From positions 233,293 to 297,292 of the forward strand of contig OZ241963.1 of assembly GCA_965204115.1 (NCBI GenBank): 64,000 bases of DNA, written 5' to 3'. Under the pieces are notes generated by a model. That model did not search any database. It was not told the DNA's origin and saw only the letters and a program-made list of their open reading frames with translations. Of the stretch, positions 1 through 14,167 are shown in pieces. The first letter of the stretch is position 1. The number at the start of each line of letters is the position of its first letter. The translations under genes and the position numbers were made by a program. Source of the stretch: Minisyncoccota bacterium. GTDB taxonomy: Bacteria > Patescibacteriota > Minisyncoccia > Phycocordibacterales > JABAAK01.

Positions 1-45
1 GATACACAGCATATCGGGCATGCTGGTGTTGTAATAAACAGTCAT

Positions 46-387
46 TTGGATAACTATAAAATCGTAAAACCGGAAGAGTTAGATAAAAAAATATTGAATA
101 TATGTGAATCAGAAAAGATAATAACTTTCATATTTCTTGCTGATCGTAAATTAACTCAAGAGGTTTTTTGTGAATATATTCATAAAACAATAGCAGGTTA
201 TGTTGAGAAGGTACCAAACGAATTGCATGGAACAAGTATTCCATTAAAAATTGATAAATACGATTCGCTCTTTGCTGTTTCACTGCCATGGAATGAGATG
301 CCGGAAACACCAGTATTTGGTTCTATGACATCTATCTCGATTGACGGATCGCAATTGATGCTGGGAATAAAAAGAAAAACGACTTAA
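46..387 (+). CDS. hypothetical protein (113 aa), first gene of the AT-rich island
   Basis: Intact ORF in the track; AT-rich codon usage matches the neighbouring genes; no recognisable motif. Confidence 0.35.
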   Translation: MDNYKIVKPEELDKKILNICESEKIITFIFLADRKLTQEVFCEYIHKTIAGYVEKVPNELHGTSIPLKIDKYDSLFAVSLPWNEMPETPVFGSMTSISIDGSQLMLGIKRKTT

Positions 388-444
388 ATAAGGGCAGGGA
401 AGGATAAGATAAGTACTGTTTGAAAGTTTCTGCAGAGTGATACA

Positions 445-1020
445 ATGAGCATGAGTATGATTAGGGATAAAAAATTAAAAGAAGCGGCGGAGATGGGAGA
501 AGGAATTGCAAGGGAGTTCAATCCCGAAACAAACATCCCCTTCCCTTTTGAGGAGATAGTAAAAAGGCACAGAGATTTAGAGTTGAGATCTGGAGATTTA
601 AGCAATGCAGGTTCGCCAATTAGTAATGACTTGTCAGGATTAATTTTGTATGACGATAGCGAGAAAAAATTTGTCATTTTGATTGAGGAGAGTAAGCCAA
701 AAAATAGAAAGTATTTCACGATTGCGCATGAATTGGGGCACTATTTCTTGCATAAGGAAGATCTAAAAGAAAAAAGTTTGGTGGTTGATGGAGATGCAAC
801 ACTCTATAGATTGGATAATGGACTGAGTAACATACAAGAATCACAGGCAAATTACTTTGCTGCTTCACTGTTAATGCCGGAGGATAGGGTTAGAAAAGCA
901 TGGAAGGCTTTTAATGAGGATGTCGAAAAATGTGCGGAATTATTTGATGTCTCTCTATCTGCTATGAGTATACGGGTGGATATATTAGACTTGAAGTATG
1001 AGTATGAAGACAGGAGATAA
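445..1020 (+). CDS. ImmA/IrrE-family (COG2856-like) zinc metallopeptidase
   Basis: HEXXH motif in the context FTIAHELGHYFLHKED, typical of ImmA/IrrE peptidases. A TTGAAA-N15-TACAAT promoter-like element overlaps the first ATG, so the real start may be M3 or M5 and the transcript may be leaderless. Confidence 0.55.
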   Translation: MSMSMIRDKKLKEAAEMGEGIAREFNPETNIPFPFEEIVKRHRDLELRSGDLSNAGSPISNDLSGLILYDDSEKKFVILIEESKPKNRKYFTIAHELGHYFLHKEDLKEKSLVVDGDATLYRLDNGLSNIQESQANYFAASLLMPEDRVRKAWKAFNEDVEKCAELFDVSLSAMSIRVDILDLKYEYEDRR

Positions 1021-1357
1021 AACACGCAAAGAACTTATAGACCATTTTCGAGAATTTGGGAAAATGTTTGAAAAGTCAGATGCAGGCTCAGGGAGCTTTG
1101 ACGAGCGAATGCAAGATTTAGGTGTGCAGGAAAAGGAGAGTGTTATAAAGTGGAGGGATAAATTTTCGAAGTTTATGACAAGGTTTTTAATGGCGCAGTA
1201 TTTTTTTATCCTCTTGTTTTTATTTTTGCAAGGATTTAAGATAGCAGGATTTCACTTAGATAACTATATTTTTTATATCCTAATAGGTGGAACTTTGGTA
1301 CAAAGTTATTTTCTAGTTAGAATTATATTTCAATATCTTTTTTCTTCGAAAAAGTAA
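998..1357 (+). CDS. small protein with a C-terminal two-TM hydrophobic region, overlapping the end of the ImmA-like gene
   Basis: ORF overlaps the upstream gene by 23 nt, suggesting translational coupling. The C-terminus YFFILLFLFLQGFKIAGFHLDNYIFYILIGGTLV is strongly hydrophobic. Confidence 0.35.
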   Translation: MSMKTGDKTRKELIDHFREFGKMFEKSDAGSGSFDERMQDLGVQEKESVIKWRDKFSKFMTRFLMAQYFFILLFLFLQGFKIAGFHLDNYIFYILIGGTLVQSYFLVRIIFQYLFSSKK

Positions 1358-1524
1358 TGTGCATCGCATGTCTCACAATACTTTTTCAGACCCAACGCAA
1401 TCCTATCAATGGCACCTGAGAGTATAAACTTCTGCAATCTGCCTGTTTTCGCTTACGCAACACTAGTGAAGTTTGCGAAAACGGCGGATTTCCTTATACG
1501 CACGACCCAATATATTTTTATTGT

Positions 1525-3204
1525 TTAATTTGTATTTCCTCTTTCTTTTAGTCTTTGAAAAAGAAAGCCAAGCACATCGGAATCTAATCTGTGAGGGAAC
1601 ACAGAAAGAAAAAAAGGGATAAATTCAGGAAATCTTTTTATTGAATCTGGAAGTGTTCTGCCATCAGAAGAGTTTGACTCATCAATCAGGTCCTTCCAAC
1701 TTTTTTCTTTTTTAGGGATTTCTGTCCTGCACTCTCCTTTCTCCGATTGCATTAAATAGTAGTCATATTTGTTATCAAAAACAAACTCCTCAAAATATAT
1801 AAATGATATTTCTCTCCATTGGTCAGATATAAAATCTTTTTGATTTAATCGTGCCATCATTTCTATAATAGGTTTTAGATAATGTGAATACTGTTTACTC
1901 TGATGTTCAAAAGGCTCTTGAGGTACGCCAAAAAACCTATTAACTACAAAATTTAAAACAAAATTTAAATCAAAGTATGGAGGAAGTAGTCCAGTTTCGC
2001 TCTCTGCATTTCTACCATTGTATTTAATTATTTCACTTATAGCGTGTTCCACCAAACTAACACCTTCCTCTTTGCTTTCATCAGAACATGTCAACATCAA
2101 CGCAAGAAGTATGAGAGGCAATAATCCTCCTTCGCCATATAAAAATATACTGCCCCTGTATTTATCAATTATGTCTTTTTGTAGAATATCTTTTATTTGA
2201 ATATTTTTTTGACTGATAACTTCAGACACTTTGAGCGAAAATATCATTGATACAGCACCATGATTGCGAAATGGGATTAAGTTTATTTCGGTTTGTGGTA
2301 ACTTAATCTTATCAAAGGTGTCCCCTGAAAGCATGGCAAGTCCCTTGCTTTCCACCTCTAATTCCAATTTTTTTGCTGTACTTAACATGTCCCCCCATAC
2401 AAGGTTATATGATTTTAACCAATATTTTTCTGCAAGATTATATCTATCAACCAAATAAAAAATTAATGAGAGCAATAAGGTCATAACTCTTATCACAGAA
2501 ACATGATTTTCTTTCTCCCTGTATGGTCCGGTGATCATAGTCATATACAAAATTGCAGCGGATACATCTCTTTTTCGTTTTTCTTTTGCCCTTTCCTCAT
2601 TGATGCCAAGTATTTGACATAAGAATGGAAATATCTCTGACAAATCTACAAAACTTGTTCCATCTGCAAAAATTAAATTGCTGAGGGTTTTATATGCCCG
2701 CGCATCTTGAGGTAAAACCTCTACGGCAATTTCTTGGAACCCTTGTAACAAATCTCCTCTTGTAAGAACTCTGAGTGGCGTGTTTTTCCACCTTCCGTTA
2801 TTTAAACCATTTATATCAGCCCTTACGCTATCATCTATATTTCCATTTGTTACTAAAAATGATATGTGCTTCTTGTTTTGATCTATGTTTGGATGAGCAA
2901 TGGGTATTTCAATTAGCACTTCAACTTCTGGCTTAACCTCAGTGCGCCAACGATGCAGATTTATATTTCCACCTTTCAGTTGATATGCACAAGGCGCTCC
3001 ATTAAAGTCAACGGCAACAACATCTTTTCCTTGTTCAAAGTTGGTATTCTTTATTTCATATTTAACAGCATACCCTTGGAATGAAAGCCACTCGCAAAAT
3101 AATGACTGATAGCTGAGTTCGTTTACTGAATCCAGCCAGTGTTCGATAACCCTTTGTAAAAAGGGTTCGTTTGTTTCTTTTTGTTTTACTGTTTTTTTGC
3201 TCAT
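1525..3204 (-). CDS. large hypothetical protein (559 aa) with an N-terminal PD-(D/E)xK nuclease-like motif; last gene of the four-gene defence-like operon
   Basis: N-terminal EWLSFQGYAV ... KDVVAVDFNGAPCAYQLKGG fits the E / hhhD / (E/Q)xK spacing of restriction-endonuclease-fold domains. The remainder has no recognisable motif. Separated by 2 nt from the upstream gene. Confidence 0.4.
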   Translation of the reverse strand: MSKKTVKQKETNEPFLQRVIEHWLDSVNELSYQSLFCEWLSFQGYAVKYEIKNTNFEQGKDVVAVDFNGAPCAYQLKGGNINLHRWRTEVKPEVEVLIEIPIAHPNIDQNKKHISFLVTNGNIDDSVRADINGLNNGRWKNTPLRVLTRGDLLQGFQEIAVEVLPQDARAYKTLSNLIFADGTSFVDLSEIFPFLCQILGINEERAKEKRKRDVSAAILYMTMITGPYREKENHVSVIRVMTLLLSLIFYLVDRYNLAEKYWLKSYNLVWGDMLSTAKKLELEVESKGLAMLSGDTFDKIKLPQTEINLIPFRNHGAVSMIFSLKVSEVISQKNIQIKDILQKDIIDKYRGSIFLYGEGGLLPLILLALMLTCSDESKEEGVSLVEHAISEIIKYNGRNAESETGLLPPYFDLNFVLNFVVNRFFGVPQEPFEHQSKQYSHYLKPIIEMMARLNQKDFISDQWREISFIYFEEFVFDNKYDYYLMQSEKGECRTEIPKKEKSWKDLIDESNSSDGRTLPDSIKRFPEFIPFFLSVFPHRLDSDVLGFLFQRLKERGNTN

Positions 3205-3206
3205 AA

Positions 3207-3809
3207 TTAATCAATAATTTTTCTTGATTTGACATCTGCCATGTGTTCTTCAAATTTTTTATCTAGTATCTCTTCTTTTTTTCTATCAAATTCAGCTTTT
3301 TCCTGAGGTGTTTGTTTCTTTTCTATCTCCATAAGCCTCTTAGAGACGGTTGGGTGTACAATTAATGACTGTTCGGATGGTTTATTCCTGTCGTCATTGT
3401 GAAAATAAATTTTTACATTTTCCATTCCCTTAAGGATGATGTCTGGACCAACCTCTGAAACATTTACTATGTTTCCGCTGTCAGCCATACTCTTTGCTAT
3501 CGCCTGGATCGCATCTCCCTCAATTTGATTTGCCACATCTGCAGACATGTCGGAAAACATGGTAAGTACATCCTCTGAAGACATATTTCTCATTTGCTTA
3601 GAGGAAATTGACATCTTGGATGAAGCTTCGTTTAGGTGTTCTACACTGTGTGTTCCATCCTCATATAAAACTCCCGTTTTATCGCCCTCATATAAGGACT
3701 GTTTAGGAACCATTGCGAGCAGAGGAGATTTTGTTTTTATCTCTTGTCTTATTGAAATATCGACGAAAATCCTTAGTTTTTCTTTTGCTTTTGGAAAATC
3801 TGGTATCAT
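3207..3809 (-). CDS. hypothetical protein (200 aa), third gene of the operon
   Basis: Intact AT-rich ORF, 27 nt downstream of the DUF262-HNH gene and 2 nt upstream of the 559-aa gene; no recognisable domain. Confidence 0.4.
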   Translation of the reverse strand: MIPDFPKAKEKLRIFVDISIRQEIKTKSPLLAMVPKQSLYEGDKTGVLYEDGTHSVEHLNEASSKMSISSKQMRNMSSEDVLTMFSDMSADVANQIEGDAIQAIAKSMADSGNIVNVSEVGPDIILKGMENVKIYFHNDDRNKPSEQSLIVHPTVSKRLMEIEKKQTPQEKAEFDRKKEEILDKKFEEHMADVKSRKIID

Positions 3810-3836
3810 TCTTGTATTTTACCATCTAACTATACT

Positions 3837-4928
3837 TTATTTTCCAGATTTTCTTCGATTACATTCTTTATATAACATCTGACAGTTTTCTGCGACTGTT
3901 TTACCGCCTTCATGCCAAGGGGTGATGTGGTCGGCTTCCATGTCTTCAATTTCAAAATGCTCTTCACACACCGGGCAGATACCTTTTTGTCTTTCGTATG
4001 CTTCACGCTTCATATTGGGAGTAAAGGCACGGATTGAAAGAGATTTCTCTTGGCGAGTTAAAACATATGGGTAGATGCCTGATTTATCCGTGACATCTTC
4101 ATCTTGCATGAGTCTGGTAATTTCGGTTTCCAATTTTTCGGCATTCAGTTTTTTATCTTTGAATTGGTTGTACAAATCGCCCCATTTTACACCTTTCATT
4201 TCATTACGATAGTTAGTGAAAACCTTGCGCACCCATGTAATGACACTTTGAAAATAATCCCAGAGTTCATTTGCATTATTATCATGCTGGTGTTTTGCCA
4301 TATAGTCTGCGACCTCCCCATCATTGATCCACAAAAGAGCGGTTTCCAAGTACTCTTGCCTGATGGGTGAACCTTTTATGAGTGACCCTCCATCATTTGC
4401 TAAAAGATACGCTGCACAACCTGTTTTACTGAATTTTAATTTTGCGTCAGAGAGCCATGGGCCGGTGTAGACCGCGTTTCTGATCTCTTGATCCGTTAAT
4501 TTTTCGCCTGCGATATTAATGGTAAAGAACCAATCCAAACGCTCTTTGTCTGTGCCTTCACAAAAGTAAATCATAAGTTCGTAGTCAAGAATCTGTTTCT
4601 GCTCTTCGGCAGTGAGATTGTGAAAAAAGCGGTCGTTGAGCAAGAAGTCACCATTTACATACTGTCCGATACTGATGGTACGCTGCTGTCCGTCCAACAT
4701 TTCATAGGTGCCATCTCCCTTAACCATCCAGTACATCACATTAAGGGGGAAATTTTGTTTGACGGTCTCAATAACCGCATTGCGCTGTTTGTCGTCATAG
4801 ACAAACTCTCTCTGGTATTTTGGACGAACATCCAATTTGCCATCATAGGCAACAACGCCTTCTTCTTTACTATCTTTATACCCTTTAACCACATCACGAA
4901 CTTTGATTTTCTCTAAGTCAATTTTCAT
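3837..4928 (-). CDS. DUF262 (GmrS/ParB-like NTPase) + C-terminal HNH nuclease fusion; GmrSD-like / type IV restriction-like protein
   Basis: DUF262 signatures KYQREFVY and DGQQRT. C-terminal HNH: CPVCEEHF...DHITPWHEGGKTVAENCQMLYKECNRRK. Confidence 0.7.
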   Translation of the reverse strand: MKIDLEKIKVRDVVKGYKDSKEEGVVAYDGKLDVRPKYQREFVYDDKQRNAVIETVKQNFPLNVMYWMVKGDGTYEMLDGQQRTISIGQYVNGDFLLNDRFFHNLTAEEQKQILDYELMIYFCEGTDKERLDWFFTINIAGEKLTDQEIRNAVYTGPWLSDAKLKFSKTGCAAYLLANDGGSLIKGSPIRQEYLETALLWINDGEVADYMAKHQHDNNANELWDYFQSVITWVRKVFTNYRNEMKGVKWGDLYNQFKDKKLNAEKLETEITRLMQDEDVTDKSGIYPYVLTRQEKSLSIRAFTPNMKREAYERQKGICPVCEEHFEIEDMEADHITPWHEGGKTVAENCQMLYKECNRRKSGK

Positions 4929-4929
4929 A

Positions 4930-5979
4930 CTATTTTTTGTTTTTGATTAAGATACGCTTAAACTTCTTTTTTCCACTGATGTAAATTGCATTTGCAAACG
5001 AATATACACCGTCCGCTCCAACCGATCCTACATGACCAATGATTTCAAATTGTTTGGGGTTGTATTTGTCCACAAAGGTTACAGGCACACCCATTACACC
5101 ACTATAATCCATCGGGATGTCAGTATATTTGTCTATATTGATTGCATCATAGTTATCATATTTTGGATATTCTTTTGGAGTGTATTTTTTATATAGAGTC
5201 AATTCCTCGTGACGCTTGGCGACATCTAAATTGGTAAACCATAAGATGCTGCCCATACTGAAGTACTTAATACCGTCCTCAACTTTGATTCTGGATTCGG
5301 TTTGAATGTCGTAATCCTCAGGCACTTGAAACCATTTGGTTCCGCCGTTATCGTACCCCAACCATAATCGGTTTTCCTTGATAAACTTAAAAATTTCTTT
5401 GTAAGTAATGGCGTTTTGATTCCCTAGGATCAAAAATTCCTTTTGGTGTTCCATTAGTTGTGCAACATAGTCTCGAAAAAGCGAAAACGGTGGATTGGTT
5501 ACCACTATATCTGCCTGTTTAAGCAGGCTGATACACTCATCGCTGCGAAAATCTCCATCACCTTTAAGCGGTGTGGCAACATTGGCGTCTTGTCTTAGTA
5601 ATTGCTTAACATCTCCTAAACTAACCGCTCCGTCATTATTGAGGTCTTTAACTTCGTTAATCTCAATTCTAAATGGCTCTTTTCCTTCTGGCTTCAATCC
5701 TTCTATCTCAACGAGTGGTAATTGCCCGCCAGCAATTGGTGATCTTATGTAGCTTGTGGCAATGAGTTTTTTAAGTCCTAAGGCATTAAAACTGGCAGCA
5801 AAATACTTGAAGAAATTACTTTCATAAGGGTCATCGCAGTTACAATATACAACCTTACCGCGGAACTGCTCTTTATAGTGTCTTAGTTCTTTTTCAATGT
5901 CAACAAGTTGAGTGTAAAACTCATCCTTTTTTGCCTTAGCTGCCTGGTGAAGACCTGTATTGTTCACTTTTGTATCCAT
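4930..5979 (-). CDS. N6-adenine DNA methyltransferase (NPPF catalytic motif IV)
   Basis: IVVTNPPFSLFRDY is motif IV ((D/N)PP(Y/F)) of amino-MTases. N-terminal DEFYTQ and CNCDDPYES resemble the EcoRI-methylase-like adenine MTase family. Stop lies 1 nt before the next gene. Confidence 0.65.
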   Translation of the reverse strand: MDTKVNNTGLHQAAKAKKDEFYTQLVDIEKELRHYKEQFRGKVVYCNCDDPYESNFFKYFAASFNALGLKKLIATSYIRSPIAGGQLPLVEIEGLKPEGKEPFRIEINEVKDLNNDGAVSLGDVKQLLRQDANVATPLKGDGDFRSDECISLLKQADIVVTNPPFSLFRDYVAQLMEHQKEFLILGNQNAITYKEIFKFIKENRLWLGYDNGGTKWFQVPEDYDIQTESRIKVEDGIKYFSMGSILWFTNLDVAKRHEELTLYKKYTPKEYPKYDNYDAINIDKYTDIPMDYSGVMGVPVTFVDKYNPKQFEIIGHVGSVGADGVYSFANAIYISGKKKFKRILIKNKK

Positions 5980-6175
5980 ACATTAATATGGTACATTGCT
6001 TTTACTTGTTTTTATTATTCCGCATTGAACATATAAAGCAGTAGCGCCCCTTGTGGGGCCTGGTTCGTATTTGGGAGCATGAATTAAAAGGAGACGGCAA
6101 AACCGCCACAAGAAAAATCTAAAAGTTTTTCAAGTATTAGCTGCTTATTCACCCTCACATTATTTGTTCAAGTCT

Positions 6176-6772
6176 TTACCTTTCTGGCGGACGAGGATGC
6201 AAACTACTTACAGGTATGTTTTTTTCTCCCAGTACGACATCCCTTAATCCTATTGCCATTATCACAGCAAATTGCTCAACCTCCCTTCCTTCACTAAACA
6301 GGTATTCTTTTATTTTCTTTAACTCGGGTGAAGCGTCATTTTTACTTTTTAATATTTCTTTCACAATATCTTTTGATTTTTCCTGTATATCAAAAGCACC
6401 GTCAACATTTTTAAACTTTTCTATCAGGATGTCCTTATTTTTTTTAATGTAGTCTTCAGCACCACTGTTACGAAAAGTTTCCTTTCCAACATCAGTGAGG
6501 GACAGAGGGCTTTGGGTTGCAACTTCTTGCCTTCCTTTCATTTGATTTAACTCTTTTGAGTTTTCTTTTACATCATCCTCAAGGGTTTTTATTTTTTTGT
6601 CCGCATTTTCCAAATTTGTCTCAAGTACACTTAATTTTACTTTCATTGTTACTAACGCAACAACAAGTGCTATAGCTGCAGACACTCCGAGGTCAATAAG
6701 CGAAGGCAGAGAGTTGGTATTACTGGCAGCAGATTCAGAGGTAGATTGAGCTATTACTTCAATAGGAATCAT
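6176..6772 (-). CDS. membrane-anchored coiled-coil protein, hypothetical
   Basis: N-terminal TM helix (LGVSAAIALVVALVTM) followed by a K/E-rich heptad-like sequence. Confidence 0.35.
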   Translation of the reverse strand: MIPIEVIAQSTSESAASNTNSLPSLIDLGVSAAIALVVALVTMKVKLSVLETNLENADKKIKTLEDDVKENSKELNQMKGRQEVATQSPLSLTDVGKETFRNSGAEDYIKKNKDILIEKFKNVDGAFDIQEKSKDIVKEILKSKNDASPELKKIKEYLFSEGREVEQFAVIMAIGLRDVVLGEKNIPVSSLHPRPPER

Positions 6773-6983
6773 ATGTTCAGTTTAACATAAACCAATTGAT
6801 TATACAAGAATATGTGGACACTGGTGACATGATTGATATGTTGAGTACATGATGCTGGATAACCTATAAATGGCGGGTTAATTAAAGTCTATATTTCTGC
6901 TACCCTGTTGCACGGAGCGGAGCGGAGATGGTGCAGTGTTTGTGTACACAATCGCTGCACTGTTTTGAATGGGCGAGGAGGGT

Positions 6984-7673
6984 TTATAAAATAGATGTAA
7001 ATAGGTTGTGGTATTTATCAAGATAGTGAGACAATTCTTTTCTCTTGTACTGCATGATGTAGCGTGGGTGTTCTAATGAATGCACCCTGTTGAACCATTT
7101 GTACTCTTCATTCAGTTCGGTAAAAAATTTATAATTTTTTCCGGATCCGAGAATGATGACGGCATCACTTCTGACACCACATTCAAACTGTGCAAGCAGT
7201 GAATTGACAATAAACGGCTTAAGCATTGTCTGCATTTCTATGCTGTCATAGTAATTATAGTTCTTGCCATGCTGTGTGAAGCCAATTGGCGACACTGCGG
7301 TGAGAAAAAAATTGCTGTAAAATGTTTCTGCTCCTCCGAATTTTTCAATAAAGGTGTACAGGAACTTTGATGAGAGTTCACGACGCTCCTTAAATGTGTT
7401 TGGAATATCACAGTGCTCAGAGAGTGCGATTGGATCGGTGAAAGGGATTCCGGTAACACCTGATCCGAATCTCCCCGGGTTAATACCCAGAACAAAAACC
7501 CTTTCATTGGTATCGTAAAAATACTTTTTTAAAAACATCTTTACATACTTAAAAATTTCCCCATCTTTATGCGGCTCTATTGCTTCAACACCACTTATCG
7601 TGATTTCAGGGACACATACATTTTCGAAGAAGTCAATAATTTTGTCATAGAAAGTTTTTTGGCTTGATAACAT
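6984..7673 (-). CDS. uracil-DNA glycosylase superfamily protein, SMUG-like
   Basis: LGINPGRFGSGVTGIPFTDP closely matches the SMUG1 catalytic motif GMNPGPFGMAQTGVPFGE. A second His-containing motif (HPRY) lies near the C-terminus. Confidence 0.55.
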   Translation of the reverse strand: MLSSQKTFYDKIIDFFENVCVPEITISGVEAIEPHKDGEIFKYVKMFLKKYFYDTNERVFVLGINPGRFGSGVTGIPFTDPIALSEHCDIPNTFKERRELSSKFLYTFIEKFGGAETFYSNFFLTAVSPIGFTQHGKNYNYYDSIEMQTMLKPFIVNSLLAQFECGVRSDAVIILGSGKNYKFFTELNEEYKWFNRVHSLEHPRYIMQYKRKELSHYLDKYHNLFTSIL

Positions 7674-7837
7674 GTCATTCCTCCGTGTTCACAATGATCA
7701 AGTGTTTTATAGCAAAAACACTCCACACCTCATTTTATCACACAGATAAATCTTTCAGAGAGACGGTTTGTCCAACTTGTTTACCTATTCCCTAAAACAT
7801 AACAAGGGGCAGCCGATGGCTGCCCCCATAAATTTGT

Positions 7838-8230
7838 TTATGCTTCTACACCTTCATCATCTTCGGACGACTCATCCTGCTCATCATATCCTACTTTCCA
7901 TAGAGAAAATATCCAGGGAAGGAATAAAAATATCATTATTATGTGAATATAGTAGGCACCATACTTACTCATTTCATGAAGGCCTCTCGGATCAAGCGAT
8001 TCGCCAGACATGTCAATGAATATCACAGGAGGTAATCCGAAAACTATAATCACATAATGCAGTGCTAACGGTATCCAAGATATGACAAGGAAATGATTAA
8101 TCAGCCATCCAGCAAAACGACCGAGTTTGGAGGACGGGTATCTTGATGTCGTGATAGCATAGCATGCAACACCGACCGCAAACAAGATGTACAACTCTTG
8201 TGGTGCAAAGTGGTACTTCACACTTTCCAT
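7838..8230 (-). CDS. integral membrane protein, hypothetical (130 aa)
   Basis: Multiple hydrophobic helices with an acidic C-terminal tail. Confidence 0.35.
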   Translation of the reverse strand: MESVKYHFAPQELYILFAVGVACYAITTSRYPSSKLGRFAGWLINHFLVISWIPLALHYVIIVFGLPPVIFIDMSGESLDPRGLHEMSKYGAYYIHIIMIFLFLPWIFSLWKVGYDEQDESSEDDEGVEA

Positions 8231-8232
8231 AA

Positions 8233-8430
8233 TTAAATACCCTTACCTTTTTTGAAAAAACGCTCATAGATCCATTCGACAAAGGGATCGTTTGCAGCCA
8301 TGATTGTCACGACAACGCATGACAATACAAATATTCCTCCAATCGTATTTGTAACTGGCAAAATAAACAAAAGCACTATTACACAAGGTACCCCAATAAA
8401 TACATATGTCATCCATTTAAAGCGCTTCAT
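8233..8430 (-). CDS. small membrane protein, hypothetical (65 aa)
   Basis: Two hydrophobic helices; 2 nt upstream of the 7838..8230 gene, operon-like. Confidence 0.3.
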   Translation of the reverse strand: MKRFKWMTYVFIGVPCVIVLLFILPVTNTIGGIFVLSCVVVTIMAANDPFVEWIYERFFKKGKGI

Positions 8431-8619
8431 TGGATAATACCTCCTTTTAAGAGATTAAATGTAGTACATAGAAATGAACATACTAGTAATAGTATACACT
8501 GTTATGCTAAAATGCCTTATTTTGTCATATTATGAATCTGTCAGAGAAAAAGATTGGCTGATTTTTCAGGACATCATTTTTTATTATGAGATAGTGGTAT
8601 ATACTATACTTTGTCTATT

Positions 8620-8691
8620 GGCCCCATCGTCTAGCGGCTAGGACGCCGCCCTTTCACGGCGGAAACCGGGGTTCGATTCCCCGTGGGGTCA
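8620..8691 (+). tRNA. tRNA-Glu (anticodon TTC)
   Basis: Manual cloverleaf: acceptor GGCCCCA/TGGGGTC, D-arm GTCT-AGCGGCTA-GGAC, anticodon stem CCGCC/GGCGG with loop CTTTCAC, T-arm CGGGG-TTCGATT-CCCCG, discriminator A. CCA is not encoded. Confidence 0.8.
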
Positions 8692-8737
8692 CATTTTGGT
8701 GGTGTTATGGTTATCGTGTTGTACGACACCTACTCTG

Positions 8738-8818
8738 TTCGGTTTCCGCCTACGGCGGTCTGATAGTCAGGTTTTTGTCAAAGCCAAAAACAGGGGGTTC
8801 GATTCCCCGTGGGGTCAC
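8738..8818 (+). pseudogene. tRNA-Glu-derived remnant: near-identical T-arm, 3' acceptor and trailer, anticodon stem with a 3-nt loop, no 5' acceptor
   Basis: GGTTCGATTCCCCGTGGGGTCACATTT.GGTGGTGT at 8671-8720 recurs at 8790-8840. The CCGCC-TAC-GGCGG stem is retained, but there is no D-arm or 5' acceptor strand. Confidence 0.4.
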
Positions 8819-8851
8819 ATTTCGGTGGTGTGGTGGCTGTGGTGTTGCTCA

Positions 8852-10000
8852 TTATTGCAGCGGCAGGCGGATTATTTTGTCGTCTCTGGGTTGGGTTGTG
8901 CCTCTGCCGTCGGTGTTGCTGGTTGTTATGTAGAGCATGGCATCCGGACCGATGATGGTGGTGCGGATTCTTCCGAATTGTTTGTGATGGTATCTTTGTA
9001 TTTCCGTTATTGTTGTGCCGTTTAGTACTGCTTTGTATACTGCTTCTCCGCGCAATCCTCCGAAGTAGATACTTCCGTTGTGGTATGCGGCACCTGCCGG
9101 TGCCCAGGTGATATTTGCACCGGAGTGTGCTTTCGGTCCTTCGGTTCCCTGCTTCACTTCGTCACCCTGGCTGTCAGGCCATCCATAGTTGCTGCCTGCG
9201 GTGATGAGGTTGACTTCATCAAGACCTGAGCGTATGCCTGAGCGTCCATGTTCGGTGCTCCATAAGTTCCCTTCTGAATCCCAGGTTATTCCCTGCGGGT
9301 TGCGGTGTCCGTATGAGTAGATTGGTGAGTTGGGAAAAGGGTTATCGTTCGGAATGGAGCCGTCATCGCGTAGGCGCAGTATTTTTCCCGCGAGTGAGTT
9401 GGTGTCTTGCGCGAGGTTTGGTTTGCCCGCGTCTCCGGTGGTTATGTATAGGTGGGTGTCGGGGCCGAATGCAATGCGACCGCCGTCATGGTATCGGGCG
9501 CCGGGAATGTCGTCTATGATAACCAGTGGCCCTGTGAGTGTTTCATCTTGGTAGGTGTAGCGTTCGACTTTGTTTTTTGTTGTGCCGTCGGGGAGTGCCT
9601 GATAGGTGTAGTACAGGTATAGGTAGTTATTTTCTGTAAATTTCGGATGTAGGGTCATGCCGAGCAGTCCGCCTTCTCCGCTTTCATACGAGCCGACTGT
9701 ATGTATCTGTCGTTTTTCAGTTTCTGTAATTAGCAAGATGTTGCCACTTCTCTCACTGACAAGCATGGCACCATTCGGTAAAAACACGATATCCCAGGGG
9801 ACATGTAAGTTATCAGCGATGATCTGCGGTGCTTGCTGTGTTTCATCAGTATCTGCGGCGGTATCTACGGCTGTGGTGTCATTTGTAACCGTGTTTATAT
9901 TGGTAGATTCCGGTTCTGGCAATACAAAAAGATTGGCGCGCGGAAGTATGAAATATAGCACGAGCGCACAGAGGATGCCTATACCGAGTAACCGTTTCAT
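8852..10000 (-). CDS. secreted PQQ-dependent glucose/sorbosone dehydrogenase-family beta-propeller protein
   Basis: Signal peptide. IADNLHVPWDIVFLPNGAMLVSERSG and repeated G-rich blades are typical of the soluble aldose sugar dehydrogenase (YliI/GSDH) family. Confidence 0.55.
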   Translation of the reverse strand: MKRLLGIGILCALVLYFILPRANLFVLPEPESTNINTVTNDTTAVDTAADTDETQQAPQIIADNLHVPWDIVFLPNGAMLVSERSGNILLITETEKRQIHTVGSYESGEGGLLGMTLHPKFTENNYLYLYYTYQALPDGTTKNKVERYTYQDETLTGPLVIIDDIPGARYHDGGRIAFGPDTHLYITTGDAGKPNLAQDTNSLAGKILRLRDDGSIPNDNPFPNSPIYSYGHRNPQGITWDSEGNLWSTEHGRSGIRSGLDEVNLITAGSNYGWPDSQGDEVKQGTEGPKAHSGANITWAPAGAAYHNGSIYFGGLRGEAVYKAVLNGTTITEIQRYHHKQFGRIRTTIIGPDAMLYITTSNTDGRGTTQPRDDKIIRLPLQ

Positions 10001-10064
10001 ATCTCTCTTACTATACCACTAACCAGATGCACATGTCGGGAGTGCTACACTACCTATATACTCT

Positions 10065-10640
10065 ATGCGCGGATCATATCCTATACTCACCACCGATGCG
10101 TTTATCGTGCATACTCGCGGGATTGGTGAGGCGGATCGGGTTGTCACTGCGCTGACTCGGCGGCATGGGATGATGGAGGTGTATGCGCGGAGTGTTCGTA
10201 AGGAGGGCGCGAAGATGCGCGGTGATACGAAGCCGTATGCGCGGGTGTCGCTGTCTCTGGTGCTTGGTAAGCGCAGTATTTTAAAAGACATTACCATCAC
10301 CGACACGCTGGATGCGATATGGGGGTGCGAGGAAAAGTACACGGCGTTTGTTATGCTCTTACAGCATCTTCGGGTGTTTGTTCCGATTACTGAATCGTAT
10401 GATGAAACTCTGTTTGCCACGATTGAGGCGGCGGTGCAGCTTTTCCGGGAATCAGATCCGACATATGCGCAGCACATCCTTTTGATTGGGCAGGTGATGC
10501 TGCTTGCCGCGCTCGGCTATGTGTCCGATCAGGATATCGTGCCGGCGCGTTTTGCAGATATACTCACCGAAACAGCAGACAGTCCGCAGCAGCAAAAGGT
10601 AATGCAGCAGTACCTTCGGGATGCCCTGCACTACCAATAG
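10065..10640 (+). CDS. recO: DNA repair protein RecO (short form)
   Basis: N-terminal OB-fold pattern (DAFIVHTRGIGEADRVVTALTRRHGMMEVYARSVRK...) matches the RecO N-domain; divergent from ileS, as is common. Confidence 0.5.
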   Translation: MRGSYPILTTDAFIVHTRGIGEADRVVTALTRRHGMMEVYARSVRKEGAKMRGDTKPYARVSLSLVLGKRSILKDITITDTLDAIWGCEEKYTAFVMLLQHLRVFVPITESYDETLFATIEAAVQLFRESDPTYAQHILLIGQVMLLAALGYVSDQDIVPARFADILTETADSPQQQKVMQQYLRDALHYQ

Positions 10641-10645
10641 CAGCG

Positions 10646-13600
10646 TTATACAATGTCCGCGACAATTTTTGCGGTCAGTTCGTCACTCTCTATGGTAAAT
10701 TCAGTGCCCTCCTCCGGACTTGTCGCAACATAGGCGACGCTGCGTACCCGCACCTCCTGTTTTATTTTCTCTTCGTGTGCCTGTATATGTTTTAACTGCT
10801 CGGTAGGTATGTGTACCGACAGTGTGTCTGCTGTTCGTGTCGGTGAAAACCCTTTTTCTTTTCGTATTTTTTGGATATTGCGAACATACTCGCGTACGAA
10901 TCCTTCGGCGCGCAGTTCGTCTGTCAGCGTGGTGCTGAGCTCAATTGGCTTGGCAGCGGCAGGGTCAACAACCACCTCTTTCACATTCACCTCATCCCGA
11001 ATCAGTGCCTGCTGCTCCTCGTCAACTTCCTGCTGCACGATGACTTTCTGCAATGGCTGCCGCACCTTGATTCCCGCTTCCGCCCGCTGTTCGTGTGCCA
11101 CCGATACAATATCCCGCACCACAGCTGTTTTTTCTATCGCGTCTCTTTGAAACCACATTTTTTGCGGCCACTTTGTGAGGTGGACACTGTCCGGCAAAAA
11201 CATTTTTTGCGGATGGTGCTTTCGCATCTCTGAGAATAGGTGCTCGGCGTAGAATGGCGCGACCGGCGCGAGGCATTTTGCAAACTCGGTCAGGATGAAC
11301 CGCAGGGTCTCCCGCGCTTCCGCACCGTCGTCCGTTCGGTTCTTTATCCTGTCTCGTGAGCGGCGGATGTACCAGGTTGATAAGTCCTCCACAAATGCGC
11401 CGATTGGCGCGACTGCTTCGTCGATGTGGTACGACTCAAGCCCTTTCGTCATTGCATCCCGCATTTCAGCAAATCGGGAGCAGATATACTCGTCCAATAA
11501 GCTTCTGCCGCCCCGCTTGTGTGGTAGGTGCGCGTATATTAAATAGAATTTGAGGCAGTTATGCAGCCGCGCGTACACTTTTTTGTATACCTCATCAACC
11601 TGCTCATCCCGAAAATCAAGATCTTCTCCGCGCACCACCGGCGAGCCGAGGAGGTAGTGTCGCAGTGAATCCGCACCGTATCGATTAATGATCTGCATTG
11701 GGTCGGTGTAGTTTTGCAAACTCTTGCTCATCTTTTTACCGTCCGCGGCGCGAATTAAGCCGGTTACCACCACCTGCCGGTACGGCGACCGATCAAACGC
11801 TCCGACCGCGATCGTCATCAAACTGTAAAACCATCCTCGTGTTTGATCCAGCCCCTCACAGATGAAATCTGCCGGAAATCCGCGGCGCAGCAGCGGGTTA
11901 AAGATTCGCTTGTTCTCAAACGGATAGTGGTGTGATCCGTACGGCATCGCCCCTGATTCAAACCAGCAGTCAAATACCTCTTTTGTGTGGTACGCCGGGT
12001 TGCCGTCTGCGTCATTGAGCACCACCTCATCAATGTACGGTCGGTGCAGGTCAACCTCGCCGTTTTCATCCCGCCTCACATGCACATAGCGAATGGGGCA
12101 CACGCTCGCGTTGGCAAGCGGTTTTAAGATGGTGGTTTTTCTGTAGTTTTTTTGAAACTGTGCTTTGGTCGGCGCGATGGAGCGTGCCGTGTTGACAACC
12201 GCCCGATGGGTAACCACCACGATGTTCGCATCCTGATACTCTCTGTCCACTTTTTCAAAAAATCGCAGGATTCGTCCGTAGATGTCTAAAAATGATTCAC
12301 CGCCATCAATGGACTTGCTCATATCACGAAATGCGCCGACTTCGCGGATTGCCCGCCATAGCTCCTGCACCGGTCGATTATGTAAATTCGGCACCTGTAG
12401 TTCGGTCAACAGCGGCTCTTCAATCATTCTCGCGTCGGTCTCTTTTGCAATGTACTCTGCTGTTTCTTTCGTGCGGGTGAGCGGTGAATGAAAAATGATG
12501 GTCGGTTTCATGGGCTTCAGTTTCTGCGCCGTCTTTGCTGCCTGCTCTCTTCCCTTTTCGGTTAAGCCATCCCCCGGTTCTTTTTGACAGTTCAAAACAT
12601 TTTTTTCATTACTCACCGACTGCCCGTGTCGCACAAAGAAATAGCGGTTTCTCGGACGCATTTTTGCGTACATCTCTTCCAGCGAGCCGACGATGATGTG
12701 CTCTCCTGTCTTCTCCACCTTCCACGCCGGTATCGGCGCGCCCCAGAAGCGGTTTCGCGATACCGCCCACTCCCGCGCTCCGGCAAGCCAATTGCCGAAC
12801 CGTCCGTCCCGAATATGCCCCGGTACCCACTTGACCTTTTTGTTCTCGGCAACCATGCGATCTTTGATTTGTTCCGAATGCACAAACCACGAATCGGTGG
12901 CATAGTTCAGCAGCGGTGTTGTGCATCGCCAGCACACCGGGTAGGCGTGCTCTATCGGCTCGCTGTGCAGTAGCAGACCTTTGTTCTGTAAATCTTGGAG
13001 TATTTTTTCGTCCACTGTTTTTGTGTTGCCCGCTTCTTTCGGACGCAAGCCGGCATACTCTTCCAGCTGCGGCACAAACACGCCGTCTTTCGTCACATGG
13101 TGTCGAATCGGCAGTCCCTCCTTCTCCGCGGTTTCCATGTCGTCGGCTCCGTATGCCGGTGCGAGGTGTACAATGCCGGTGCCGACCCCCTGCTCAATAT
13201 ATGGCACCCGCTGCACGCGCCATAGTTTCTTTTTTACCTGCGCATCGTCTTTGGCGTAGAGGTGGTCGAAGGGTGGTGTGTACTCTTTTCCGACCAGTTC
13301 GGAACCCTTTTTTGTCCCTGTGGCTGTGCCGCCGTCCACGATGTGTGCTGCGTCCTGATGCAGGATATATTTCTTTCCTTCCCGCTCGACGACCGCATAC
13401 TCCATACTCTCGTCCACACCGAGTGCGACATTGCCGAACAGTGTCCATGGCGTTGTTGTCCACGCAACGAGACAGGTGTTCGGATCATCTTTCAGCGGAA
13501 ATAGCACATACACTGCCGTGTCGGTCAGCGGCTCATAGCTATCCGCGACCTCTGCGTTGGAGATGACCGTCGAGCAGCGCGGACACAGGTGTAGTGACTT

Positions 13601-14167
13601 GAAGCCATTGCTCACCAAGCCCCGCCGGTGCAGCCGATGAAAGACTGACCACACCGATTCCATATATGGTGTGTTGAGCGTGCGATAGTCGTTCTCCATG
13701 TCCACCCACCGACCGATCCGCGGAATAATCTGTTTCCACTCGTCCACATAGGTAAAGATGGTGTCGCGAATACCGCGGTTAAATTTTTCTATGCCGTATT
13801 CTTCAATGTCCCGCTTTGTCTTTGTCCCGATTTTTTTCTCCATTTCCACCTCAGGCGGCAGTCCGTGGCAATCCCATCCCCACCGACGCAGCACCTGATA
13901 CCCCCGCATCGTCTTATACCGCGGCACCACATCTTTCACGATGCTCGCCAAAATGTTGCCGAAATGCGGCAGTCCCGTCGCGAATGGCGGGCCGTCGTAC
14001 ATAATAAATTGTCTTTTCGGGATGAGTTTTTGTGTTATTCGCTGCAAAAAGCTTTTTTTCTCCCGCCCCTCACTCTTTTCAAAAATGCTGTTTTCCCGCC
14101 AAAACCGTAGCACCCGTTCCTCCCGACCGGCAACCGTTTCCCGTTTTTCGCCTCCCTTTTCAGCCAT
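10646..14167 (-). CDS. ileS: isoleucyl-tRNA synthetase, type 2, carrying an inserted histidine-phosphatase-like domain
   Basis: PPFATGLPHFGNIL (HIGH region), WAVSRNRFWGAPIP, DLHRPYIDE and KMSKS are present. 1173 aa is ~130-150 aa longer than typical type-2 IleRS, due to the RHGQ...VVVTHRAVV block between the PIPAW and DLHRPYID segments. Confidence 0.9.
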   Translation of the reverse strand: MAEKGGEKRETVAGREERVLRFWRENSIFEKSEGREKKSFLQRITQKLIPKRQFIMYDGPPFATGLPHFGNILASIVKDVVPRYKTMRGYQVLRRWGWDCHGLPPEVEMEKKIGTKTKRDIEEYGIEKFNRGIRDTIFTYVDEWKQIIPRIGRWVDMENDYRTLNTPYMESVWSVFHRLHRRGLVSNGFKSLHLCPRCSTVISNAEVADSYEPLTDTAVYVLFPLKDDPNTCLVAWTTTPWTLFGNVALGVDESMEYAVVEREGKKYILHQDAAHIVDGGTATGTKKGSELVGKEYTPPFDHLYAKDDAQVKKKLWRVQRVPYIEQGVGTGIVHLAPAYGADDMETAEKEGLPIRHHVTKDGVFVPQLEEYAGLRPKEAGNTKTVDEKILQDLQNKGLLLHSEPIEHAYPVCWRCTTPLLNYATDSWFVHSEQIKDRMVAENKKVKWVPGHIRDGRFGNWLAGAREWAVSRNRFWGAPIPAWKVEKTGEHIIVGSLEEMYAKMRPRNRYFFVRHGQSVSNEKNVLNCQKEPGDGLTEKGREQAAKTAQKLKPMKPTIIFHSPLTRTKETAEYIAKETDARMIEEPLLTELQVPNLHNRPVQELWRAIREVGAFRDMSKSIDGGESFLDIYGRILRFFEKVDREYQDANIVVVTHRAVVNTARSIAPTKAQFQKNYRKTTILKPLANASVCPIRYVHVRRDENGEVDLHRPYIDEVVLNDADGNPAYHTKEVFDCWFESGAMPYGSHHYPFENKRIFNPLLRRGFPADFICEGLDQTRGWFYSLMTIAVGAFDRSPYRQVVVTGLIRAADGKKMSKSLQNYTDPMQIINRYGADSLRHYLLGSPVVRGEDLDFRDEQVDEVYKKVYARLHNCLKFYLIYAHLPHKRGGRSLLDEYICSRFAEMRDAMTKGLESYHIDEAVAPIGAFVEDLSTWYIRRSRDRIKNRTDDGAEARETLRFILTEFAKCLAPVAPFYAEHLFSEMRKHHPQKMFLPDSVHLTKWPQKMWFQRDAIEKTAVVRDIVSVAHEQRAEAGIKVRQPLQKVIVQQEVDEEQQALIRDEVNVKEVVVDPAAAKPIELSTTLTDELRAEGFVREYVRNIQKIRKEKGFSPTRTADTLSVHIPTEQLKHIQAHEEKIKQEVRVRSVAYVATSPEEGTEFTIESDELTAKIVADIV

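Follow-up and report, generated by a model that had tools for sequence, protein, structure and literature searches.

The 64,000-nucleotide stretch of Minisyncoccota DNA analysed here (contig OZ241963.1 of GenBank assembly GCA_965204115.1, positions 233,293 to 297,292; hereafter the window) carries near its start a block of four closely packed minus-strand genes. These encode, in reading order, an N6-adenine DNA methyltransferase, an endonuclease with DUF262 and HNH domains, a 200-amino-acid protein and a 559-amino-acid protein (Table 1). The list of open reading frames (ORFs) places gaps of only 1 nucleotide (nt; position 4929), 27 nt (3810-3836) and 2 nt (3205-3206) between them, just as an earlier note on this DNA had described. 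The NPPF motif, the DGQQRT motif and the HNH finger that the same note had read in the first two products are all present in the translations, and the family scans agree with them. A consensus scan placed a terminator-like hairpin upstream of the methylase gene (6093-6109) and found no minus-strand terminator-like site between the four genes. Given this lack of an internal site on the coding strand, it is plausible that this genome transcribes the four genes together by read-through.

The block resides in a low-GC island. Genes from position 1 to ~8.4 kb have GC contents of 0.32-0.41, compared with 0.51-0.54 for the host genes beyond, and the island ends near a tRNA-Glu gene (8620-8692) located by tRNA scan. 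The two halves of the block also differ from each other at third codon positions, where GC content (GC3) is 0.38-0.42 for the first two genes and 0.28-0.33 for the last two.

Table 1. Features of the gene block and its island, in window coordinates
Feature	Position	Strand	Basis or remarks
N6-adenine DNA methyltransferase, EcoRI-methylase family, 349 amino acids, NPPF; putative modification (M) subunit	4930..5979	-	Pfam, PADLOC
DUF262 (GmrSD_N, DGQQR) plus HNH endonuclease, 363 amino acids; putative restriction (R) subunit of the same pair	3837..4928	-	PADLOC, Pfam, PDB HNH matches
Small cassette subunit, 200 amino acids, predicted truncated HK97 capsid/encapsulin-like fold	3207..3809	-	Conserved extreme termini
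Large cassette subunit, predicted nuclease effector, 559 amino acids	1525..3204	-	Homologues, AlphaFold2 model, directly downstream of small gene
Predicted N-terminal Mrr/FokI-type PD-(D/E)xK nuclease domain, residues 14-160	2725..3165	-	Catalytic-type residues within 2974-3036
C-terminal mostly helical domain, ~395 amino acids	1528..2712	-	Invariant residues including R212, N233, E358, W463, P519
Attachment-site (att)-like non-coding element	1399..1495	-	97 nt, directly downstream of the cassette; blastn to locus L036
IrrE/M78 metallopeptidase	445-1357	+	Pfam E=4e-21; PADLOC CapP E=8e-31
Low-GC island	1..8600		Carries both gene pairs; composition profile, per-gene GC and GC3, tRNA scan

A known restriction-modification pair

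The first two genes are readily assigned. Residues 10-348 of the methylase align with positions 2-345 of the 345-position Pfam profile EcoRI_methylase (PF13651, E=3.1e-141), and the protein also matches the PADLOC model MTase_II (PDLC03297, E=1.3e-130). The 363-amino-acid protein contains GmrSD_N (PF03235, E=7.5e-17) and HNH (PF01844, E=2.5e-12) domains, and its whole length aligns with the PADLOC model REase_II (PDLC03418, E=3.4e-138; residues 1-363 with profile positions 1-372 of 372). A tblastn search with the endonuclease matched 121 plasmid records, which are spread over many genera. An ‘adenine-specific methyltransferase EcoRI family protein’ is recorded under the endonuclease match in 8 of the 12 best-scoring plasmid records listed, and both M and R features are annotated at the Gordonia and Variovorax matches. 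On Aeromonas and Sulfitobacter plasmids the M and R genes overlap by 1-4 nt and the neighbouring genes are unrelated, such that the restriction-modification (R-M) pair recurs as a self-contained unit on plasmids of many phyla.

Given these full-length model matches and the recurrence of the pair on plasmids, the first two genes are therefore, as far as sequence can tell, a known and mobile two-gene Type II R-M unit (3837-5979). The EcoRI-family methylase would mark host adenines, and the DUF262 and HNH enzyme would cut unmarked DNA. The pairing with a methylase means that the endonuclease reads as modification-blocked rather than modification-dependent.

A widespread two-gene cassette without annotation

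The remaining two proteins match no family in Pfam, PADLOC, NCBIfam or PHROGs, which bears out the impression that neither is recognisable. Specifically, the PADLOC run that had been proposed for this locus recovered MTase_II and REase_II for the upstream genes and no model for the other two, with zero families for either protein at E<=0.1 in PADLOC-DB v2.0.0, a release that dates from 2023. The larger protein is nonetheless a member of an extensive family. It has 69 word-indexed homologues, and a profile search of 1.84 billion cluster representatives returned 1,464 matches at E<=1e-3 and 688 at E<=1e-30, nearly all of them 510-570 amino acids long and aligned end to end. The window's own copy had been clustered under a 140-amino-acid fragment as representative, and hence was absent from its own first homologue search.

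When the 200-amino-acid protein was used alone, only two relatives were found, and an exact look-up of its sequence gave no further record. However, a gene for a protein of ~200 amino acids lies directly upstream on the same strand in every large-homologue neighbourhood viewed, and a profile built from these aligned small proteins retrieves 51 proteins. A scan of species-representative genomes, run with a 19-sequence subset of the 56-sequence large-protein alignment, yielded 22 loci from several lineages of Patescibacteria and from Bacteroidota, Myxococcota, Thermodesulfobacteriota, Chloroflexota, Acidobacteriota, Gemmatimonadota, Clostridia and Eisenbacteria. Hidden Markov model searches of all ORFs recovered the small and large genes together in every fetched locus, and four further loci agree. 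In total, the two genes are adjacent and co-oriented in 29 of 29 non-redundant loci from about ten phyla, a count that includes the window as well as one locus (L031) in which the large gene is fragmented. That locus comes from a Vicinamibacterales metagenome-assembled genome (MAG). Two short, overlapping ORFs take the place of an intact large gene there, and the small gene has lost part of its length (7440-8452); this copy is probably a decaying cassette.

Often only 1-6 nt lie between the two genes, or they share an overlap of 35-45 nt, and the identity matrices of the small and large proteins are strongly correlated (Mantel r=0.86; none of 5,000 permutations as high). The pair is evidently inherited and transferred as a unit. 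An all-against-all BLAST comparison of neighbouring genes revealed no third recurrent partner across the loci. Relatives of the large protein are absent from PLSDB plasmids, INPHARED phages and IMG/VR, and one homologue of the small protein (P0078) has no phage match even at E<=10.

Predicted structures of the cassette proteins

An AlphaFold2 model of the 559-amino-acid protein (pLDDT 90.7, pTM 0.91) predicts an N-terminal domain with the alpha-beta-beta-beta-alpha-beta core of the PD-(D/E)xK superfamily. The earlier note had pointed to an E..D..QxK arrangement in this region as compatible with a restriction endonuclease, and this observation has held up well. The catalytic-type residues are E57, D61, Q75 and K77, and in the 56 homologues E57, K60, D61, Q75, L76 and K77 are invariant. 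In the model, D61 lies just before the strand formed by residues 62-65 and Q75-K77 fall inside the strand formed by residues 71-77, so that the conserved acidic residue and the (D/E/Q)xK signature (here Q75-L-K77) are on adjacent strands. The D..QxK form is the Mrr-cat variant of the motif. Among the nearest structures for this domain are those of MspJI and AspBHI, both Mrr-cat enzymes, and of LlaBIII, a Type ISP enzyme. The Pfam model Mrr_cat (PF04471) was approached by only one of the 56 members, at E=0.11, and the kinship of the large protein to Mrr-cat and FokI enzymes is seen in the predicted fold only. These data support an intact and strongly conserved restriction-type nuclease active site.

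The helical domain that makes up the rest of the protein has no convincing structural or sequence relative, and folds known to read modified bases (SRA, winged helix, YTH and others) were not detected in it. Sequence searches of the PDB with the profiles of both cassette proteins returned nothing usable.

For the 200-amino-acid protein, a truncated HK97 capsid or encapsulin-like fold is predicted, with few strands following a long helix in the model; BFVD served as the fold library. Its extreme termini are conserved, reading M-I/L-x-D-F at the N-terminus and R-K-L/I-V-D at the C-terminus. No Pfam capsid or encapsulin model scored above threshold among the small proteins (Phage_capsid_4 reached E=0.084 in 2 of 43 members), and PHROG 544 was matched at E=1.1e-5 in only 2 of the 43. 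Matches to the Pfam family HK97-gp10_like in 5 of the 43 were dismissed, as they cover only a 29-residue helix. No recognisable DNA-binding domain is present in the small protein.

Evidence for a composite origin of the gene block

The window endonuclease clusters at 90% identity with a protein encoded on a 451-kb contig in the assembly of a related genome (locus L036). At this locus, and at one from a second sample (L037), the methylase and endonuclease genes are present and are followed by an unrelated 120-amino-acid ORF. The blastn alignment between the window (3836-6016) and L036, which has 80% identity over 2,221 nt, ends exactly at the endonuclease stop codon. Beyond the cassette, homology to L036 resumes in the att-like element, which aligns with L036 positions 10725-10817 (83.5% over 97 nt) and there overlaps a tRNA-Ile(GAT) gene (10798-10877). 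Within the element is a degenerate version of the final ~20 nt of the tRNA-Ile gene, along with sequence downstream of it. L036 carries a second copy (9569-9636) just past the 120-amino-acid gene that follows its R-M pair, and the window holds a single copy. The element folds no better than shuffled sequence (z=-0.38), and no Rfam families other than tRNA were found within positions 1-12000. We believe that it probably marks the boundary of the island.

The break at the stop codon and the flanking element thus place the cassette in a variable ‘cargo’ slot, bounded on one side by the R-M pair and on the other by the att-like tRNA fragment. The best reading of the block is that of two independent, horizontally acquired modules arranged head-to-tail in a low-GC island of a small-genome host. 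If so, operon-like tight packing in defence islands need not mean that the genes form one system.

Genomic neighbourhoods of the cassette

At least 12 of the 29 loci place the cassette amid defence or mobile-element genes. It lies on the same strand and directly 3' of Type II R-M genes both in the window and in L017, where the preceding genes encode a HinfI endonuclease and an N6_N4 methyltransferase. In a Bacteroidota MAG (L018, 6595-16300), the cassette is located between hsdM-hsdS and hsdR of a Type I operon, with all genes on one strand. The same insertion also holds a 471-amino-acid gene with weak matches to PADLOC SIR2-type and CasR/Csa3 models. Elsewhere the cassette is divergent from a Dam methylase gene and a 381-amino-acid gene (L010), or adjoins a serine recombinase and a Type III-like methyltransferase and Res pair (L032). 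Counting the window's own, the R-M neighbours belong to five different families. Their adjacency could be a simple island effect, or could reflect a backup role to restriction such as that of nucleases lodged within Type I loci. The majority of cassettes do not adjoin R-M genes.

Other neighbours include TIR/STAND proteins and IS110 (L007); reverse transcriptase, SLFN/AlbA, DUF6602 and CHAT proteins (L005); an LmuB/Mad3-like ATPase, a GajB-like helicase and a STALD-like protein (L027); an SNF2 helicase of the DrmD/BrxH type (L025); a retron-type PRTase (L029); a protein matching the PADLOC model DitA (L022); and HNH, FRG, HSDR_N and AAA_15 proteins (L033). A scan of 132 neighbours adds MADS components, PD-Lambda-4_A, more Type I and Type II R-M genes, integrases and transposases. 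Several copies have housekeeping surroundings, namely gyrB, dnaE and RNase HII (L001), ribonucleotide reductase (L003) and tsaD (L034 and L035), placements that are as expected for a small mobile cassette.

Other features of the window

The plus-strand metallopeptidase gene next to the block is overlapped by an ORF for a 119-amino-acid protein with a hydrophobic C-terminal half (46-387). This gene pair has 81% DNA identity to positions 3807-4751 of L036, where it lies on the opposite flank of the R-M pair, beside a gene for an ASCH-domain protein. No helix-turn-helix partner of the metallopeptidase was recognised in the window. The pair may regulate the defence genes of the island.

The low-GC island also contains a minus-strand gene of the uracil-DNA glycosylase (UDG) superfamily (6984-7673; PF03167, E=1.9e-12). 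In L004, too, a gene of the UDG family (2245-2976) is found at a distance of ~7 kb from the cassette, which may be coincidence. At the tRNA-Glu gene, a 54-nt direct repeat with 89% identity occupies positions 8668-8721 and 8794-8847. The first copy covers the 3' end of the tRNA gene together with the sequence that follows it, and the second is offset from it by 126 nt. This repeat looks like a leftover attachment-site duplication from integration or excision at tRNA-Glu.

Outside the island, the minus-strand isoleucyl-tRNA synthetase gene (10646-14167; 1,173 amino acids) contains an inserted domain of ~190 amino acids that bears the RHG...H motifs typical of the histidine-phosphatase (phosphoglycerate-mutase-like) family. 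Searched alone, the insert matches phosphoserine phosphatase 1 (4ij5) at E=2.7e-10. The gene product is a putative synthetase-phosphatase fusion of an unusual kind.

Possible functions of the cassette

Overall, we favour, with modest confidence, the explanation that the block joins an R-M pair to an independent cassette that encodes a predicted nuclease and a protein of predicted capsid fold and acts against phages or other mobile elements. Because the two genes lie very close together or overlap and their products have co-diverged, the cassette proteins most likely form a complex. That they do so, that the nuclease is the effector, and that the cassette restricts phages or other mobile DNA is, taken together, a proposal we judge reasonably probable. 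The cassette (1525-3809) would then be a self-contained mobile system in which DNA is cut by the 559-amino-acid Mrr/FokI-type PD-(D/E)xK nuclease with its large fused helical domain. The capsid-fold subunit would hold or direct this nuclease and would respond to phage capsid-assembly proteins through capsid-like interfaces, such that DNA cleavage is released or localised late in infection. A more specific version, which is offered tentatively and which we consider somewhat unlikely, is that the small subunit is a domesticated capsid protein in truncated form, which would bind the intermediates of phage capsid assembly or assemble together with them, or would build a small cage or capsomer of its own, and would in this way free the Mrr-type nuclease or bring it to the viral DNA as this is packaged. 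If a capsid-based mechanism operates, self and non-self would be distinguished by capsid-protein recognition or location rather than by DNA sequence or modification.

Several other explanations need to be weighed against this proposal. The earlier note had suggested that all four genes act together as one integrated defence system, and this idea draws on the tight gaps, on the lack of internal terminator-like sites, and on the placement of the cassette, which in L017 and L018 as well comes immediately after R-M genes, so that a generic functional coupling to R-M systems may exist. However, the distribution of the genes largely refutes it: an all-against-all comparison found no counterparts of the window methylase or endonuclease beside any other cassette, and a search for the four-gene combination across genomes, which the note had proposed, turned up only the window among the 29 loci. 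Furthermore, the R-M pair exists without the cassette in L036 with a homology break at the stop codon, R-M partners elsewhere come from unrelated families (HinfI, Type I, Dam, Type III-like), and GC3 differs between the two gene pairs. Thus, a single four-gene system seems very improbable. The part of the earlier interpretation that survives is the candidate undescribed defence cassette, which is confined to the last two genes, while the first two are a conventional R-M pair. A toxin-antitoxin (TA)-like addiction module, in which the nuclease is the toxin and the small protein the antitoxin, would stabilise islands without any direct sensing of phages. Such a module would account for a small upstream gene that is tightly coupled to or overlaps a larger nuclease gene, for the strict co-inheritance of the pair, and for island-edge positions beside an att-like element, a serine recombinase or IS110. 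Yet both proteins are far larger than those of typical type II TA pairs, the small protein has a predicted capsid-like fold and lacks a recognisable DNA-binding domain, and the conserved 400-amino-acid helical domain suggests sensing or recognition. We therefore regard an addiction module as unlikely, with the note that TA and abortive infection functions are not mutually exclusive.

The large protein might instead be a Type IV-like (modification-dependent) or DNA-feature-specific endonuclease whose helical domain reads DNA and for which the small protein is an accessory. The resemblance to MspJI, AspBHI and LlaBIII, the Mrr-cat form of its motif, and the frequent position of the cassette beside R-M systems all agree with such a role. 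We nevertheless consider it quite unlikely, because no modified-base reader fold was detected, an obligatory partner of predicted capsid fold is left unexplained, and the N-terminal nuclease gives a domain order unlike that of Mrr and MspJI. A role outside defence, either in DNA repair or recombination or as a selfish mobile nuclease cassette that promotes its own spread, would fit the loci among housekeeping genes and the very diverse insertion sites, which have no consistently linked recombinase. This too appears improbable, given that defence or mobile-element genes lie only a few genes away in at least 12 of the 29 loci, and that a patchy spread over about ten phyla argues against a core repair function. 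It is also conceivable that the small protein, in the manner of an encapsulin, builds a shell or capsomer in which the nuclease is sequestered as cargo, so that the cassette would be a nanocompartment system and not an immune sensor. The predicted fold that invites this idea belongs to a protein of only 200 amino acids with few strands after its long helix, and the capsid and encapsulin Pfam models all remain below threshold. Moreover, the ends of the large protein are variable in the 56-sequence alignment, with no conserved terminal peptide that could be a cargo tag, and no recurrent metabolic partner was seen among the neighbours scanned. A nanocompartment is accordingly highly unlikely.

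If the cassette is indeed a defence system, a large family (1,464 cluster representatives) that spans Patescibacteria, Bacteroidota, Myxococcota, Chloroflexota, Acidobacteriota, Clostridia and other groups has been missed entirely by current annotation and defence-finding libraries. It would also be among the few candidate defence systems that are prominent in the small genomes of the candidate phyla radiation. Furthermore, cells would have put the HK97 capsid fold to use in immunity instead of in compartments or virions, which bears on how often viral structural proteins become sensors or decoys.

Comparison with known systems

The R-M pair is of an already known kind, whereas the cassette was previously unannotated and a partner of predicted capsid fold for a nuclease appears to be unprecedented. 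We found no published account of a defence system that combines a capsid-fold protein with a nuclease in the full-text literature, of which our coverage is incomplete. The first two genes of the block are alike end to end to known pairs of an EcoRI-family methyltransferase and a DUF262 and HNH endonuclease, which NCBI names ‘adenine-specific methyltransferase EcoRI family protein’ and ‘DUF262 domain-containing protein’. These pairs have the same M-then-R order with near-zero spacing, and there is no material difference between them and the window genes. What follows downstream is the unrelated cassette here and the 120-amino-acid gene in the closest relative.

The endonuclease also shares an N-terminal DUF262 domain (ParB-like, DGQQR) and a C-terminal nuclease of the His-Me finger type with the GmrSD/BrxU/SspE family, whose members are Type IV enzymes that combine DUF262 with DUF1524 (PMC12707154). 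However, the C-terminus of the window enzyme is a classical HNH domain (PF01844) rather than DUF1524, which had no Pfam match in the protein, and a methylase gene lies directly upstream. A GmrSD-type Type IV assignment was rejected on account of the missing DUF1524 and the cognate methylase partner.

Compared with encapsulins and HK97 major capsid proteins, the small cassette protein falls short of the matched encapsulin chains by ~40-60 residues, and its predicted fold shows fewer A- and P-domain strands and a long extra C-terminal helix. In addition, the cassette is not accompanied by a known cargo type or by a virus or satellite context. Defence genes within R-M operons offer a different parallel. 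The anticodon nuclease PrrC sits inside the EcoPrrI Type I locus, much as the cassette lies between hsdS and hsdR in L018 and after Type II genes in the window and L017, although the cassette has no sequence or fold relation to PrrC.

A conceptual likeness exists to CapRel (bioRxiv 10.1101/2022.05.30.493996), a fused toxin-antitoxin reported to bind the phage capsid protein. The likeness is limited to the idea of an immune effector under the control of a phage capsid protein interaction; there is no homology, the sensing step is hypothetical for the cassette, and the cassette itself would encode the capsid-fold protein. Finally, the large protein would join the enzymes with Mrr-cat/FokI-type domains, such as FokI, R.BspD6I, MspJI, AspBHI, LlaBIII and AF1548. 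It differs from these in combining an N-terminal nuclease with an unmatched helical domain of ~400 amino acids, and in being accompanied by a separate gene for a predicted capsid-fold partner.

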